From a virus (Duplodnaviria > Heunggongvirae > Uroviricota > Caudoviricetes), in the IMG/VR virus record IMGVR_UViG_2554235125_000005, positions 1-29,539 of that record: a stretch of DNA of 29,539 bases. One strand, written 5' to 3'. The position numbers were made by a program, and so were the translations under genes. The notes under the pieces are model-generated. The model had not been told where the DNA came from, did no database searches, and saw nothing but the letters and a program-made list of their open reading frames with translations. Below are positions 20,481-25,308 of this stretch, in pieces; position 1 is the first letter of the stretch, and every line of letters starts with the position of its first letter.

Positions 20481-21704
20481 TTAAACTTCGTCTTTACTAT
20501 TTATCATTCTGATATAACTAGGCATACGAGGATCTGAAATTTTATATACCCCTCTAGCTGCCTTTGTAAGGATCGCTCCTTTATCAGCCCTAGTAAAACG
20601 CCCAATATAGTTACTCATGTGATAGTTACTTAATGAAATTCCCGTATCTTCTCGAATTTGGGTAATCCATTCTTGAATGGTAAATTTATTATCTTTGAAT
20701 TTGGCTGCTGCATAAAGTATTGATGGATAAACATCAGTCCTGGATGAAGTAACTGCGTTCTCATAGTCTCTTTTAAGTTGTCCCTCGGTGTTTACTACTG
20801 CTCGCCTCAAAGCTTCAGGAAGAATGTCGGAATTTACTTCGCTTTTACCAGATGATAATACTATATCTGCAGATTCCTTTCCTATAAGATGCGTGAAATA
20901 TGGAAAACCATTGCTAATTTCAACTATAGAGTTTTTAACGTCACTACTAAATGTTATACCCAAGCCACGCTCGCCAGTCTCAATTATTTCATGTAAATAT
21001 TTATCTTCAATTCGAGAGAGTTGAATTTCATGGAGGCATCTGTTCACAGAAGGATGACCTGCTATCAACGAAGCACCGTCACTGGAAATGCCAACTAATA
21101 AAATCTTCAAAGGACTATTGGAATCGCTAAGTTGTTTAACAAACTCAGCGACATCATGCTTAACGTCATCACTGACAACATCAAATTCATCTATTAAAAG
21201 TATTGCATTCAATTCTTCAAGCGCAAAACAGGCTTTACTTGGAGTAAGATCTTCTTTTTCTATCGTGATTTTCTCTTCGGCAGAAACGTCCGCTCTAAAT
21301 AATTTCAAAACATTAAGGCCAACACCTGCTTTTTTAGTAGTCTCTCTTTTATTTGCGGCATATTCACTATCAATAAATATAGCTGGCCTTGCAATAATAT
21401 CTTTGAATTTTGTTTTTTTATCACATCGCACTACAAAAATATTACTAGGTAACACACCTTCATTTTTCCCTCCCTCTAAAGTAGATAAGGCGAGCGAGCT
21501 TTTCCCAATCCCTCTCTCTCCATAAATCATACAATGCTTGCCATCAGTAGTTAAGGTATCGAGGATATGTTCCACCTCGTTATTACGTCCTTTCAAATGG
21601 GTAGGTGCCTCAATAGGTTTAGAGGGTGTAAAATATAAATCAACATTTTTAATTTTATTTTTTTTTGCTTTAAATTTACTGAATATGCTGCTAGTAGTCG
21701 TCAT
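20481..21704 (-). CDS. P-loop NTPase of unknown function (AAA+/STAND-like with C-terminal winged-helix-like region), cargo gene
   Basis: 407-aa ORF with Walker A GERGIGKS and Walker B ILLIDEFD about 100 residues apart. No ABC signature. AGGA Shine-Dalgarno. Strongly AT-rich codon usage. Sits between portal gene and cos. Confidence 0.6.
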   Translation of the reverse strand: MTTTSSIFSKFKAKKNKIKNVDLYFTPSKPIEAPTHLKGRNNEVEHILDTLTTDGKHCMIYGERGIGKSSLALSTLEGGKNEGVLPSNIFVVRCDKKTKFKDIIARPAIFIDSEYAANKRETTKKAGVGLNVLKLFRADVSAEEKITIEKEDLTPSKACFALEELNAILLIDEFDVVSDDVKHDVAEFVKQLSDSNSPLKILLVGISSDGASLIAGHPSVNRCLHEIQLSRIEDKYLHEIIETGERGLGITFSSDVKNSIVEISNGFPYFTHLIGKESADIVLSSGKSEVNSDILPEALRRAVVNTEGQLKRDYENAVTSSRTDVYPSILYAAAKFKDNKFTIQEWITQIREDTGISLSNYHMSNYIGRFTRADKGAILTKAARGVYKISDPRMPSYIRMINSKDEV

Positions 21705-21821
21705 TTCCGCATCCTATTGCAAAAAGTTAACTTATTAAAAGAAAAATTCAGAGTAAGTGCAATACCTATTATTCGGAGCTTGTCACAAGATTCACTACTG
21801 AAGTGTAACCGCTGGCGCGCA

Positions 21822-21840
21822 ATGCTTTCCCCGCCACGCC
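21822..21840 (-). other. cos: cos-type cohesive-end site (19-mer)
   Basis: Plus strand ATGCTTTCCCCGCCACGCC is the reverse complement of GGCGTGGCGGGGAAAGCAT, which matches the P2/186 19-nt cohesive end as I recall it. Expected position for a prophage (between Q and the A side). Confidence 0.6.
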
Positions 21841-21999
21841 TGCCCGCTTTATGGGGCGGTTTTAATGCAGTTGCATGACTACTCTGGATCCGCTTCAGCT
21901 CTGGCGGCGCACGGCCAGAACGGGCAATCCCGGCGCATGCAAAACCATGCACCTGTTGCATGCACGACTAAAAAACGGGGTAATCGCGGAAAAATGGCA

Positions 22000-22025
22000 T
22001 AAAAAACCGGCATTCACGGTGCCGG
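22000..22025 (-). terminator. Candidate intrinsic terminator ending the SOS-operon transcript before cos (minus strand)
   Basis: Plus strand AAAAAACCGGCATTCACGGTGCCGG. On the minus strand a 6-bp GC-rich stem (CCGGCA/TGCCGG), 7-nt loop, then UUUUUUAU. Confidence 0.45.
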
Positions 22026-22119
22026 TTTGGTGTCAATCTGGTAACCAGCTAACGCCTCGCGGGGCTCGTTGTTCAACCCCGCCAGCACTGAAAGCAAGTT
22101 TCAGCACCGGCGGCGTTTG

Positions 22120-22356
22120 CTATCGTCGGCGGGGCGGCGGAATAATCGGACCTCTCGCCGGTGTAAACGCCTCAATTTTCGGATTACTAATATCGTACAG
22201 CCTGCCGTAATTATCCCTGACTATTTCGGCGCACCCGACCAGCTCGGCGGGTGACAAATTCTCATTGACCATTATCCGCTGCAGGCGATGAACGATAGCC
22301 ATTAACTTAATATTTCTTGTCTGGTGCTGCGGTATTTCACTTGGTAGTCGATGCAT
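22120..22356 (-). CDS. Hypothetical protein (78 aa)
   Basis: ORF with GAGGGTGA upstream of its ATG and a Pro/Arg-rich C-terminus. Flanked by two related 60-bp repeats. No family recognised; could be non-coding. Confidence 0.3.
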   Translation of the reverse strand: MHRLPSEIPQHQTRNIKLMAIVHRLQRIMVNENLSPAELVGCAEIVRDNYGRLYDISNPKIEAFTPARGPIIPPPRRR

Positions 22357-22555
22357 ACTATCACCCTCGATGAATTTTAATCAGTGCCGTCAAAACGCCA
22401 CTATAAAACCCTCTCAGATCATGCTTCATTCATCACGGGCGTGTCATCAATAGCACATTGAGAAGTTTTGAAAGGCAGGACTAAAGCCTCGTGGGCTCGT
22501 TACTCAACCCCGTCGACGCAAAAAGCTAGTTTTTGCGCCAACACGGTTATCATGT

Positions 22556-22786
22556 TTAACGCCAGCTATCGTCTTCCCAAATCTCTTGTAATATGCCGCC
22601 TAATGTTTCTTTGTCTGCCTCTTTATCGAATCCGATAACCTCTACACCAGTCATTGACCCTTTCTTGACGTTAACTTTTATTGTAGGAAAAACGCATTGT
22701 ACTCGATGTGTTATTTCATTCTGAAAAGCATCAATGATCTGTTGCCCTAATTTTTGTTCTTTATCCAACGTGATATTGATTCTCAT
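22556..22786 (-). CDS. dinI: DinI-like protein (possible C-terminal module of a Tum-type antirepressor)
   Basis: 76 aa, MRINITLDKEQ...GGILQEIWEDDSWR; resembles E. coli DinI in length and in the N-terminal MRI.. and C-terminal ILQE.WE..D.W pattern, from memory. Downstream of a LexA box. Confidence 0.7.
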   Translation of the reverse strand: MRINITLDKEQKLGQQIIDAFQNEITHRVQCVFPTIKVNVKKGSMTGVEVIGFDKEADKETLGGILQEIWEDDSWR

Positions 22787-22789
22787 AAT

Positions 22790-22972
22790 CTAATCAGCCT
22801 TATAAAAATTATCATCTTCGGTTTCGTTATTCTCGCTGTTTGCTAGGTCTGCAATGAGAGTGAGCGCGAGCTTTAAGTCTGATGGCTTGCAGTTTGCAAT
22901 CAGAGATACCTCGGCAATAAATTGCACACAAGCCCACTTTTGCTGCGTTCGGCTGAAATGTTCGTCAACCAT
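22790..22972 (-). CDS. Small SOS-induced protein (60 aa), possible N-terminal part of a split Tum-like antirepressor
   Basis: ATG preceded by AGGAGG and a consensus LexA box. Same frame as the DinI-like ORF, separated only by TAG plus one codon. Confidence 0.5.
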   Translation of the reverse strand: MVDEHFSRTQQKWACVQFIAEVSLIANCKPSDLKLALTLIADLANSENNETEDDNFYKAD

Positions 22973-22991
22973 GGAATCCCTCCTACAGGGT

Positions 22992-23011
22992 TACTGTATG
23001 TTTATACAGTA
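22992..23011 (-). promoter_or_regulatory. LexA operator (SOS box) overlapping a candidate promoter -10
   Basis: TACTGTATGTTTATACAGTA fits CTGT-N8-ACAG with AT-rich spacer. On the minus strand TATAAA lies inside the box, about 25 nt upstream of AGGAGG and ATG. Confidence 0.75.
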
Positions 23012-23085
23012 GCACGTATTGGTAAAAGATGGGAAGAAAAAAAACGAATAGGGCGATTGTCGTATGTACATGATATGGATATAAA

Positions 23086-25308
23086 TTACTCTGATATTGG
23101 TTTTGATGCTTCAGCTATCGCAGCAACACGATTAAGGATTTTCCTGGCTTTAGCCTCATGCGATGGTGCTGTGGAAAATATTTCTCCTTTGGCCGTTCCG
23201 CGTAGCCATTTACCATCAAAACAACTTTTACCACCGGCCATCAAGTGCAGAGCTTCGCCCCGGCTGATATTAATGCCGGTTGTCAGATGTATCTCTTCGA
23301 TAGTTTTCGCTATAGCTGCGTTTTGCTCATCCGTTCCGTGTATGAATTTTCGCCGTGCTGCTGGCTTTTGCTTCCTGAGTCGGTTGGTTAGCTCTCGTCT
23401 TTCGCGTCGACTCAGGGGCTTTGTCAAATCCAGTACCGGTGGATCGTTTTCGCTTCCCGTACAGTTATTGACAGAACTCCGAGGGACGGCTTTGCCGTCC
23501 TGAAGGTCAACGGCCAAATCAACAGCATGCTTCGGAACAATCTTCCACTGAGTGAGTCGGGTTAATATCGGGCTCCCTGCACCTATGGAGGAATCGTAGA
23601 CCCCCTTAATACATACCGTTTCCTCACCGTACTGATTAAGCTCGGTACGCGGTTCATACAGTGTGCGCACCTGTAAATCATCGCGACGGACAAACGGTCC
23701 ACCCTGCGCATTAACATACCCAGCCCAGTCACCAGCGTCGGCGGCATCATGGACGGCGGCAAACTCAACGCTCAGTCCGTGCGCGGTTTCGGTATCAGCG
23801 AGGCGACGCAACTCACGGTAAACCGTCACCGGCGCACCACCGATAAACTGAAACTGACGGATGTGCCAGCGCGAAGCCCATGCTGAAACGGCGGGGGCTG
23901 TCTCTTTCAGCAGTTCACCACTTTCATCATCGGTTTCACCATCGAGAGCATAACCGTCGATATTTTTTGAGATGTATTTAGCAACATAGCCGGTTGCGCT
24001 GCCTTTCTCCGGGTCAATGGACTCGGCGTGGAAACGTGCTTTTTTGGCCTTATCGCTTTTCAGTTCGTGGCGGTCTTCTTTACACGCGTATTTACGTACG
24101 ATGGAGCGAACATATTCAACATCTTCCGGCAGCATGAACATCAGCATGTGCCAGTGTGGAGTACCGTCGTGATGGGGCTCGGCAACACGAATACCGAAAA
24201 TACGGACATCTTCCCGATGCAGTTTGGCACGGATACGCGCCCAGATACCGGTTAGATAGTTTTGCGTGTCAGCCGGGCTGGCACCGCTCCATTTGCTGTT
24301 ACGGTAACCGGCTTTAGTCGTGGCGTGATATTTCGACGGCGCGGTCAGAGTGTAAAACTCACCGACATAACCGAGCTCATTACAGATGTTTTCAAACCCA
24401 CGGATGCGAGTCATGAGCTCACAGCGGCGAATCGCAGGGTTAGCAACTGAGCCATCATATTTTTCAATCAGGCTGATACGGTTGCCGTCTTCGTCTTCGA
24501 GATCCAGACCTTTGAGAAATTCACGAGTTCGGCGCTTTTGTTCACGCCAGTCAGTCACGCAGTTTTTACTCGCATAGGTGTTTTTTTTCTTGCTGACGTT
24601 GCCGACTGCAATTTGCAGGTGTTCGCGCCACGTAGCTGCAACTCGGCGCAAACGACCACGCCACCACCCATCGTTAAACATCTTGGCGATAGCCGGTGCG
24701 ATTTCATCCGCGCCGACATATTTTTTTGCAACCCGATCCCAATGGGGTGGGATAACGTTGAATTGGAGGGAAATAAAGCCAGCACGATTATACCAGGTGT
24801 ACAGCGTTTTAAGCTCGCCGAATCCGTGGTCATTAATGTTGGCAAGTTCACCACGAATGAAATCAGCAATATCGGCGGCCAACAGGTCAACATCAGCGCG
24901 CGACATATCCGGGAGGCGGTTATATCGGGCGACCATATTAACCATGCGTGACGCCAGATATTGCATAAGCTGGGTATCAAAATGACTTCCAAAAACAGAG
25001 GTTGATACCTTGCTGTTGATACCCGCGCATTCGTATTTTTTTGCGACCAATTCAAGACGCGGCAATGCCTTTTTGCAGAAGCTGATCAAAAAGGCATTGG
25101 CTCGTTGAATACCCTGATTTTGCTCCAGCACTGCAGCAGTGCGATAAACATCTAACCGCACGCAGTCGGGCTGGAGAGAAAGCACCTTTTTCGCATGCAG
25201 CAAAGCCGCGAACATACGGTCGCGGCGATGCTGTTGCTCATAAGTAAGGTATGGGCTGGAGATTGCCGACCGTGGGACGTTCCACGGATAAGCGAATTGA
25301 ACAGCCAA
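23086..25308 (-). CDS. A: Replication initiation protein A (rolling-circle nickase)
   Basis: 740 aa, near the P2 gpA size as I recall it. Contains HWHMLMF and GYVAKYISK motifs resembling the metal-binding and catalytic-tyrosine motifs of rolling-circle initiators. Confidence 0.85.
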   Translation of the reverse strand: MAVQFAYPWNVPRSAISSPYLTYEQQHRRDRMFAALLHAKKVLSLQPDCVRLDVYRTAAVLEQNQGIQRANAFLISFCKKALPRLELVAKKYECAGINSKVSTSVFGSHFDTQLMQYLASRMVNMVARYNRLPDMSRADVDLLAADIADFIRGELANINDHGFGELKTLYTWYNRAGFISLQFNVIPPHWDRVAKKYVGADEIAPAIAKMFNDGWWRGRLRRVAATWREHLQIAVGNVSKKKNTYASKNCVTDWREQKRRTREFLKGLDLEDEDGNRISLIEKYDGSVANPAIRRCELMTRIRGFENICNELGYVGEFYTLTAPSKYHATTKAGYRNSKWSGASPADTQNYLTGIWARIRAKLHREDVRIFGIRVAEPHHDGTPHWHMLMFMLPEDVEYVRSIVRKYACKEDRHELKSDKAKKARFHAESIDPEKGSATGYVAKYISKNIDGYALDGETDDESGELLKETAPAVSAWASRWHIRQFQFIGGAPVTVYRELRRLADTETAHGLSVEFAAVHDAADAGDWAGYVNAQGGPFVRRDDLQVRTLYEPRTELNQYGEETVCIKGVYDSSIGAGSPILTRLTQWKIVPKHAVDLAVDLQDGKAVPRSSVNNCTGSENDPPVLDLTKPLSRRERRELTNRLRKQKPAARRKFIHGTDEQNAAIAKTIEEIHLTTGINISRGEALHLMAGGKSCFDGKWLRGTAKGEIFSTAPSHEAKARKILNRVAAIAEASKPISE

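Follow-up and report, generated by a model that had tools for sequence, protein, structure and literature searches.

What a short sequence repeated between the replication gene and the cos site of a P2/186-like prophage might do is the question raised by the 29.5-kb stretch of viral DNA analysed here (the window, in its full length), a 186/PSP3-like prophage with DNA identical to that of a prophage in E. coli EC6622. A preliminary description of this sequence had pointed to two related segments, at about 22048-22110 and 22481-22550, as a functional element rather than a chance repeat, and had offered packaging sites, RNA processing or stability elements, or the ends of an inserted cassette as possible roles. 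Both segments are present at these positions by three types of search. A repeat search returns a direct repeat of 47 nt (22062-22108 versus 22493-22539) with 74% identity, patterns for the conserved box match the window only twice, where shuffles expect 0-0.1, and a covariance model (CM) built from relatives gives exactly two matches, both on the minus strand (22047-22122, 97 bits, E = 2.6e-25; 22479-22553, 66 bits, E = 8e-17). We consider it very probable that they belong to a functional, strand-specific family of structured elements, and that they are neither packaging sites nor a chance repeat. The element is a selected hairpin-plus-tail of the sense strand, it is transcribed, it is located at the end of an SOS/early operon, and it forms the exact left border of a hotspot of variable genes.

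Each element is about 70 nt long and is made of a 19-bp hairpin followed by a conserved, mostly single-stranded tail of 25-26 nt, GAACAACGAGC-NNN-GCGAGGCGUUAG, the sense-strand consensus being AAC-G-CCGCCGGUGCUGAAA, the loop CUYGC, UUUCAGUGCUGGCGG-G-GUU, and then the tail. Copy 1 (22049-22117, minus strand), distal and consensus-like, begins 2 nt past the stop codon of ORF78, an open reading frame (ORF) of 78 codons, and comprises a 19-bp hairpin at 22075-22117 (AACGCCGCCGGUGCUGAAA-CUUGC-UUUCAGUGCUGGCGGGGUU) and a 26-nt tail at 22049-22074 (GAACAACGAGCCCCGCGAGGCGUUAG). Copy 2 (22481-22548, minus strand), internal and diverged, begins 7 nt past the stop codon of a DinI-like gene, with its hairpin, an inverted repeat, at 22506-22548 and its tail at 22481-22505 (GAGUAACGAGCCCACGAGGCUUUAG). 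When the 18 modelled stem pairs are compared between the two copies, 8 are unchanged, 3 have changed on both sides and still pair, 6 have changed on one side and still pair via G.U, and 1 is broken. The hairpins first noted, CTGAAA/TTTCAG and GCAAAAA/TTTTTGC, do exist, but they are only the tips of these 19-bp stems. The boundary between box and stem had been misplaced, as the CCCCG of the box, which the sense strand reads as GGGGUU, belongs to the stem and forms its 3' base, and the functional strand, which is the minus strand, had been left unidentified.

The covariation proposed for the stem is borne out by the alignment of the family and by shuffles, and supports a functional element rather than chance. 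Over 92 distinct sequences, 94% (94.3%) of the alignment cells of the stem are paired and 11 of the 18 stem pairs show changes on both sides, values that were reached by none of 500 shuffles and by no slid register. The stem is continuous except for one G.G mismatch. In relatives retrieved by BLAST, and thus independently of the search pattern, the lower stem is compensated from CC..GG to UU..AA (Klebsiella and Yersinia phages), and the G.G mismatch is replaced by C-G, together with a G-C flip, in phage ST147-VIM1phi7.1. Divergent members with unrelated stem sequences form the same hairpin of 18-20 bp when folded. A three-way junction with the outer helix AACGCC/GGCGUU, the minimum-energy fold of copy 1, was rejected, since it pairs 89.6% of the cells versus 94.3% and is broken by variants of the C12 and L129 types, which perfect the long stem. 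Within the tail, tandem G.A pairs would allow a mini-hairpin, CGAGC-NNN-GCGAG, which draws its support from one related group (GA to UC) and is a weak structural possibility. The same strength applies to a pseudoknot between loop and tail (CUYGC/GCGAG), in which 91% of the cells pair, with one-sided wobble-compatible changes only and no double changes, and which is not kept in divergent members. The internal copy scores below the distal one in all of the 20 two-copy loci examined, and the tails of internal copies carry lineage-specific substitutions.

The survey of P2/186-like genomes and the CM search that had been suggested as checks both recovered a family. The copy-1 type is found in 87 phage records, including 186, PSP3, Wphi, P2-EC67, Midge, SEN1 and phages of Yersinia, Klebsiella and Erwinia, in more than 119 IMG/VR contigs, and in at least 530 of 5426 complete E. 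coli genomes, a lower bound given by BLAST with an 86-nt query. The genomes that carry the element belong to 29 species, all of the Enterobacterales, and pattern matches in other phyla fail the CM. No element was found in P2, including its right arm, or in the whole of P4, so that the element marks a subset of P2-like phages. Rfam 15 gave no match at gathering thresholds over the window, and at E <= 10 over 21750-23100 only chance snoRNA matches, located elsewhere. None of the records inspected annotates the element, and no description was found in the searchable literature by sequence strings or by topic, a mention in key older papers remaining possible. It is apparently an undescribed variant of a familiar kind, the cis-acting stem-loop at operon ends or between cistrons, and its unusual traits are the near-invariant tail and the precise boundary that it forms with a defence-gene hotspot.

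The strand on which the structure matters can be read from the changes that are tolerated in the stem. Among the stem cells there are 195 G.U versus 21 A.C combinations and, since transitions yield both equally, this excess indicates that selection for pairing is restricted to the sense strand. The z-scores of RNA folding are -4.6 (copy 1) and -4.8 (copy 2) on the minus strand, and -0.9 and +0.1 on the plus strand. With DNA parameters the minus-strand fold is still significant (z = -2.9 and -5.0) at half the energy, the commonest type reaching -20 kcal/mol as DNA versus -41 as RNA. Both the significance of the DNA fold and its restriction to one strand would suit an element of single-stranded DNA (ssDNA), namely a hairpin on the strand displaced in A-protein rolling-circle replication that serves for lagging-strand priming, primosome assembly or as another ssDNA site. 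Some 1.4 kb separate the element from the ori within gene A, to both of which it has a constant orientation, and the folding strand would be the displaced one if the A protein nicks the sense strand, as phiX174 gpA does. This explanation presupposes that the displaced strand is the minus strand, and we regard it as unlikely. P2, with the same mode of replication, has no such element, a copy is undetectable in most P2-like prophages of E. coli, and the upper stem of the commonest type contains 3 G.T wobbles in 13 pairs, which cost a hairpin much more stability as DNA than as RNA; in addition, several relatives also employ the tail as a Shine-Dalgarno sequence, a use at the RNA level. A mimic of the nick site or ori used by the gene A protein (GCGCCTCGGAGTCCTGTCAA or the equivalent in 186 or the window) was also rejected, with p = 0.2-0.9 for local alignment versus shuffles on either strand. 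The heptamer CGCCTCG is common to the element and the P2 ori; the ori sequences of 186 and of the window differ.

Both copies are on the sense strand of a LexA-controlled tumA/DinI operon. In the annotated record of phage 186, which has a single copy, the element is found between orf97 and t95b, the terminator of the LexA-controlled p95 transcript, and it is therefore transcribed as part of the 186 p95 mRNA. In BTP5, a related prophage of Salmonella D23580, no transcript is expressed more highly than that of tum (PMC7067206); this strain, too, carries the element. Of the roles first suggested, RNA processing or stability is the best fit, as the structure is restricted to the sense strand and the element is inside the p95 transcript. 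Our favoured interpretation, put forward tentatively as a whole, is that the element represents a cis-acting RNA family of the sense strand, placed distally in the rightward SOS (tum/DinI) or early operon, at its end, and acting in processing, stability or insulation. The long stem would be a barrier to exonucleases or an RNase III-type duplex, and the tail a site of recognition or processing that, in some relatives, also donates a ribosome-binding site to the next cistron. The expression of the SOS/early genes would thereby be made independent of the cargo located 3' of the element. The two copies of the window are explained by a pair of gene-plus-element modules in tandem, one with the DinI-like gene and one with ORF78, the internal copy having a partly degenerated tail.

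RNase III processing sites of phage mRNAs, such as the early sites R0.3-R1.3 of T7 and the sib retroregulator of lambda, provide a known counterpart that the element seems to resemble. These too are related hairpins of about 60-70 nt, after or between cistrons, which act in sense-strand RNA only, keep their structure more than their stem sequence, and determine the stability of the message 5' of them, or uncouple it. In contrast, the stem of the element is nearly uninterrupted over its 19 bp, without the internal loop typical of the T7 sites, and is followed by the near-invariant single-stranded tail of 26 nt, which those sites lack. About two turns of double-stranded RNA, a feature of RNase III substrates, are provided on the sense strand by the 18-20-bp stems of all folded members, and by this likeness the element may be considered a candidate RNase III substrate.

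Several considerations weigh against an RNA element with this function. A role in mRNA 3'-end processing, stability or insulation is the most likely one, and it is one that we infer for all members. The sequences of the alignment are phylogenetically related, so the counts of stem changes overstate the number of independent events. The column entropy of the tail is near zero save for NNN, part of this apparent invariance being ascertainment, because the pattern used for collection fixed 15 tail bases; the only parts free of this bias are the GCGAGGCGUUAG half and the members derived from BLAST. A near-invariant tail also implies a specific partner, and neither a search for antisense partners within the phage nor the Rfam scan gave one: the best duplex in the window, at -29.6 kcal/mol, is within the range of shuffled tails, and a trans-pairing partner of this kind was rejected. 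Hairpins tolerant of G.T pairs could also act as ssDNA. Finally, P2-type portal genes are found in 2623 of the 5426 complete E. coli genomes (about half), versus the 530 genomes with the element, so that most E. coli P2-like prophages have no copy detectable by BLAST; this absence, together with that from P2, indicates that its function is dispensable.

The position of the element among its neighbouring genes follows a strict rule. In about 130 instances it is found 0-16 nt past the stop codon of a gene on the same strand, which is DinI-like (...DDSWLH or ...DDSWR), of the ORF78 family (...PPPRRR/P), orf97-like (...VDSILDN) or TumA-like, and occasionally of another type, such as a reverse transcriptase. 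ORF78 is the most frequent gene directly 5' of the element, and two copies about 405 nt apart, observed in 18 of 112 loci, always flank an ORF78 homologue. In the Klebsiella phage ST147-VIM1phi7.1 (locus L129, 2508-3888) an annotated reverse transcriptase and an XRE-family regulator are found directly 5' of the element, which indicates that cargo can occupy the 5' side too.

On the 3' side, about 45 unrelated contexts start right after TTAG, and the column entropy rises from at most 0.6 bits within the tail to 1.7-1.9 bits just past it. The 3' end of the element is the exact left border of the variable cargo (defence-gene) region gpA-cos-gpQ, a hotspot described by Rousset et al. 2022 (PMC9122126), with about 18,000 loci, where the mechanism of exchange was left open. 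The cargo measures 0.3-2 kb and its junction on the cos side is variable; in cargo-free contexts a spacer of about 25 nt is followed by t95b and then by cos. The next large ORF is co-oriented in about 60% of the contexts, starting 0-230 nt 3' of the element, and in the others it is convergent, sometimes with a stop codon that overlaps TTAG, as for gene 045 of phage Midge. In 7 contexts an ORF starts 2-5 nt past TTAG, 7-10 nt from the GAGG of the tail, which would be its Shine-Dalgarno sequence. In the window, comparison with phage Midge reveals a cargo scar of about 24 nt at 22029..22052 on the plus strand (GGTGTCAATCTGGTAACCAGCTAA), corresponding to the 3' end of a convergent gene whose full-length version is CPTMidge_045. 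Its TAA stop overlaps the terminal UUAG of copy 1, and it is fused directly to a t95b-like terminator; the presence of this scar between t95b and copy 1 points to the imprecise deletion of a cargo module.

Some of the genes that follow the element deserve mention in their own right. In the divergent IMG/VR loci L008 and L107, the gene located 2 nt past the element encodes a 107-aa UmuD'-like protein that begins at MGFPSPAQDYVE, the UmuD cleavage point, and would hence be pre-activated; it is predicted to be translated from the GAGG of the tail, inside the SOS operon. In three IMG/VR loci not from E. coli (L019, L078 and L118), a family of 87-93 aa (MGGRDYNFQIVYRG...PLF) with no assigned function starts 3 nt past the element, and would likewise be translated from the Shine-Dalgarno sequence of the tail. 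In addition, LexA-box-like sequences are found 20-45 nt 3' of the element in L121 and L056 (CTGTATGTGTATACAG and CTGCTTGTGCATGCAG), which suggests that some cargo modules may bring their own SOS-regulated promoter.

A border defined to the nucleotide could also mean that the 70 nt are a recombination element, that is, a left anchor or one-ended target for the uptake or swapping of cargo beside cos. The joining of about 45 unrelated contexts at one nucleotide after TTAG, with a cos-side junction that varies, would be expected from such a site, and the element is found with the same 3' module behind three unrelated upstream genes; the exchange mechanism left open for the hotspot (PMC9122126) gives room for it. 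Yet 33 distinct cargo segments proved to lack a second copy or half-site at their far ends, and no dedicated recombinase is present among the genes of the locus. The former result also limits the proposal that the two copies are the ends of an inserted cassette, which holds for the tandem gene-plus-element modules of the window but not for other cargo. Furthermore, the tail does not co-vary with the cargo, so there is no crossover point inside the element, the deletion scar in the window is imprecise, and the compensatory changes and G.U bias show that a folded single strand is under selection, something that a passive anchor for homology would not require. A sharp edge can also arise with no site-specific chemistry. 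Each illegitimate replacement of cargo could delete spacer and never restore it, and the junctions would migrate until they reach sequence protected by selection, giving sharp edges on both sides. The sharp cargo junction is most simply explained by such an erosion ratchet stopping at a selected element, and we consider a recombination site an unlikely explanation.

Two known types of sequence found at the junctions of exchangeable genes were compared in this context. The attC sites of integrons are similar in length (about 70 nt), in their position 3' of a small ORF, in having structure on one strand and variable genes beyond, and in the AAC...GTT at the foot of the hairpin, where GTTGAAC fits the R' consensus GTTRRRY. 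This identity was rejected on three counts. With regard to the boxes, there is no R'' (RYYYAAC), no L'' or L' and no extrahelical base, the 5' side being (A/G/T)AAC without RYYY. An attC crossover would be at G|TT in R', whereas here the 26-nt tail past GTT is constant over the approximately 45 contexts and homology breaks after TTAG. The cassette logic also fails, with no second site in the 33 cargo segments and no IntI among the annotated genes. Mosaic lambdoid phages have short conserved boundary sequences at the junctions of their exchangeable modules, a situation like that of the element, which differs from them in its covarying, strand-specific structure; such a structure argues for a function of its own beyond that of a homology patch.

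Given the ORFs that follow, a transcription-elongation signal has also to be weighed, either an ops- or nut-like site that loads anti-termination into the AT-rich cargo, or a factor-dependent attenuator. The tail end, GGCGUUAG, matches the RfaH ops core, GGCGGTAG, at 7 of 8 positions on the non-template strand. Two divergent members, L091 (810-885) and L113 (2711-2786), read GGCGGTAG exactly, and L091 keeps the T at ops position 11. Like ops/JUMPstart, this would be a short non-template-strand motif just 5' of horizontally acquired genes, and the co-oriented ORF close to the element in about 60% of the contexts is compatible with it. However, the 7/8 match has p ~0.01 before correction for the approximately 10 motifs compared, many cargo genes are convergent, and in cargo-free phages the working terminator t95b is directly 3' of the element. 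Whereas ops has a leader position, the element is found at the distal end of its operon, and no Rfam match was obtained even at E <= 10, in a scan that we take to include the JUMPstart model. Copy 1 reads GGCGTTAG, the form of the main family, with T at ops position 5 and no T11, copy 2 reads GGCTTTAG, with two core mismatches, and the exact core is found in L091 and L113 only. The ops core is characterised by G5, T6 and C3:G8. RfaH reads G5 and T6 of ops, G5A abolishes function, and G5A, T6A, G8C and T11G are the most defective substitutions (PMC5995543). In the element, the base-specific G5 is replaced by T in nearly all members, and the pause-determining T11 is unconserved. An elongation signal is, in our view, a distinctly improbable explanation.

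A broader proposal, which we judge rather unlikely, is that of a strand-specific site governing the P2 defence hotspot. In one variant, it would be a one-ended recombination or insertion target, folded as ssDNA during rolling-circle replication, that places cargo right after TTAG; in the other, an RNA or non-template-strand signal of a new kind that licenses the expression of any foreign gene landing behind it. Either variant, if true, would explain both the start of about 45 cargo modules at one nucleotide and the near-invariance of the tail across enterobacterial genera.

Returning to the RNA element that we favour, its setting in the window is as follows, all genes around the repeats being on the minus strand. 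Gene A, for replication, occupies 25308..23086 and is followed by a perfect LexA box read from the sequence (TACTGTATAAACATACAGTA, 23011-22992), located 5' of a tumA-like gene; the counterpart of this box in phage 186 is annotated as LexA site and p95 promoter. The tumA-like gene (22972..22790, 60 aa, phrog_1993) opens the SOS operon and is identified also by the tumA/tumB annotation of PSP3 on homologous DNA. The DinI-like (TumB-type) gene whose stop codon precedes copy 2 is at 22786..22556 (Pfam PF06183, E = 6.6e-18; RefSeq annotation). Between copy 2 and ORF78 there is a leader of about 125 nt, conserved in all two-copy loci, in which a consensus scan picks out a promoter-like site, ATGACA-18-CATGAT (22418..22447, minus strand). 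ORF78 itself (22356..22120) encodes a small protein of phrog_11386 with a conserved C-terminus (...PPPRRR) and no assigned function, and is bracketed by the two copies, as first described. The other flank of the cos hotspot, from cos to the portal gene, contains an AT-rich gene (20481-21704, minus strand) encoding a 407-aa STAND/AAA NTPase with matches to Pfam nSTAND1 and AAA_22, to phrog_6841 and, weakly, to the PADLOC candidate PDC-S59; from these matches it is likely an anti-phage cargo gene.

Downstream of copy 1, at a distance of 20 nt, a canonical intrinsic terminator (AACCGGCA-CCGUGAA-UGCCGGUU plus a U run; 22000-22029, minus strand) is the homologue of 186 t95b, annotated in the 186 record as 't95b; p95 transcript terminator' at the homologous place. 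The element and the t95a/t95b terminators of 186 belong to the same operon, copy 2 occupying the place of the partial terminator t95a and copy 1 being just 5' of the t95b homologue, so an intrinsic terminator could be envisaged for the element as well, and its 19-bp stem does have a GC-rich base. However, the 186 terminators are canonical GC hairpins with U runs, whereas the sense strand has no U tract after the stem of the element (GAACAACG), the sequence 3' of the stem being GAACAACGAG, and a scan for terminators makes no call. In 186, the element is transcribed through, the p95 transcript being annotated as ending further 3', at t95b.

Together with a terminator, a terminase recognition (packaging) site is the explanation that we find the least credible, and it is extremely unlikely. 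The two copies do adjoin cos on its right-end side, at about 210 and 640 nt from the cos 19-mer, which is present in the window at 21822-21840 (minus strand GGCGTGGCGGGGAAAGCAT). The linear 186 record terminates at the base homologous to window position 21841. The element and the cos 19-mer also have 8-mers in common on the same strand (shuffle p ~0.03): GCGAGGCG of the tail equals nt 2-9 of P2 cos (L125:4776-4794), and TGGCGGGG of the stem equals nt 5-12 of the 186/window cos. These are probably a GC-rich coincidence. A packaging site should have a fixed place in every genome packaged through a P2-type cos, but P2, including its right arm, and P4 are both packaged in this way without the element, and its distance to the conserved cos-proximal motif varies from 84 to 1967 nt, that is, from about 85 nt to about 2 kb; the packaging role was accordingly rejected. 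Two further resemblances, to Chi (GCTGGCGG versus GCTGGTGG), which falls in the covarying part of the stem and is unconserved, and to the rrn boxA (UUGAACAA versus UUUAACAA), which is partly inside the stem, were judged to be due to chance; the cos, Chi and boxA resemblances are all at the level expected after about 10 post hoc comparisons.

Phage 186 has been under study for decades, and the finding brings to its SOS (tum/DinI) induction operon a cis-element that had escaped annotation. If it is merely a stabilising stem-loop, the finding is useful, yet ordinary. P2-like prophages are found in about half of the complete E. coli genomes and anti-phage systems have a major reservoir in their gpA-cos-gpQ region, for which the questions of organisation, expression and exchange were raised by Rousset et al. 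2022 (PMC9122126). For these questions the element provides a concrete object for mutation and assay, and an exact landmark with which cargo can be delimited in genome mining, and it is a candidate natural insulator or processing module.

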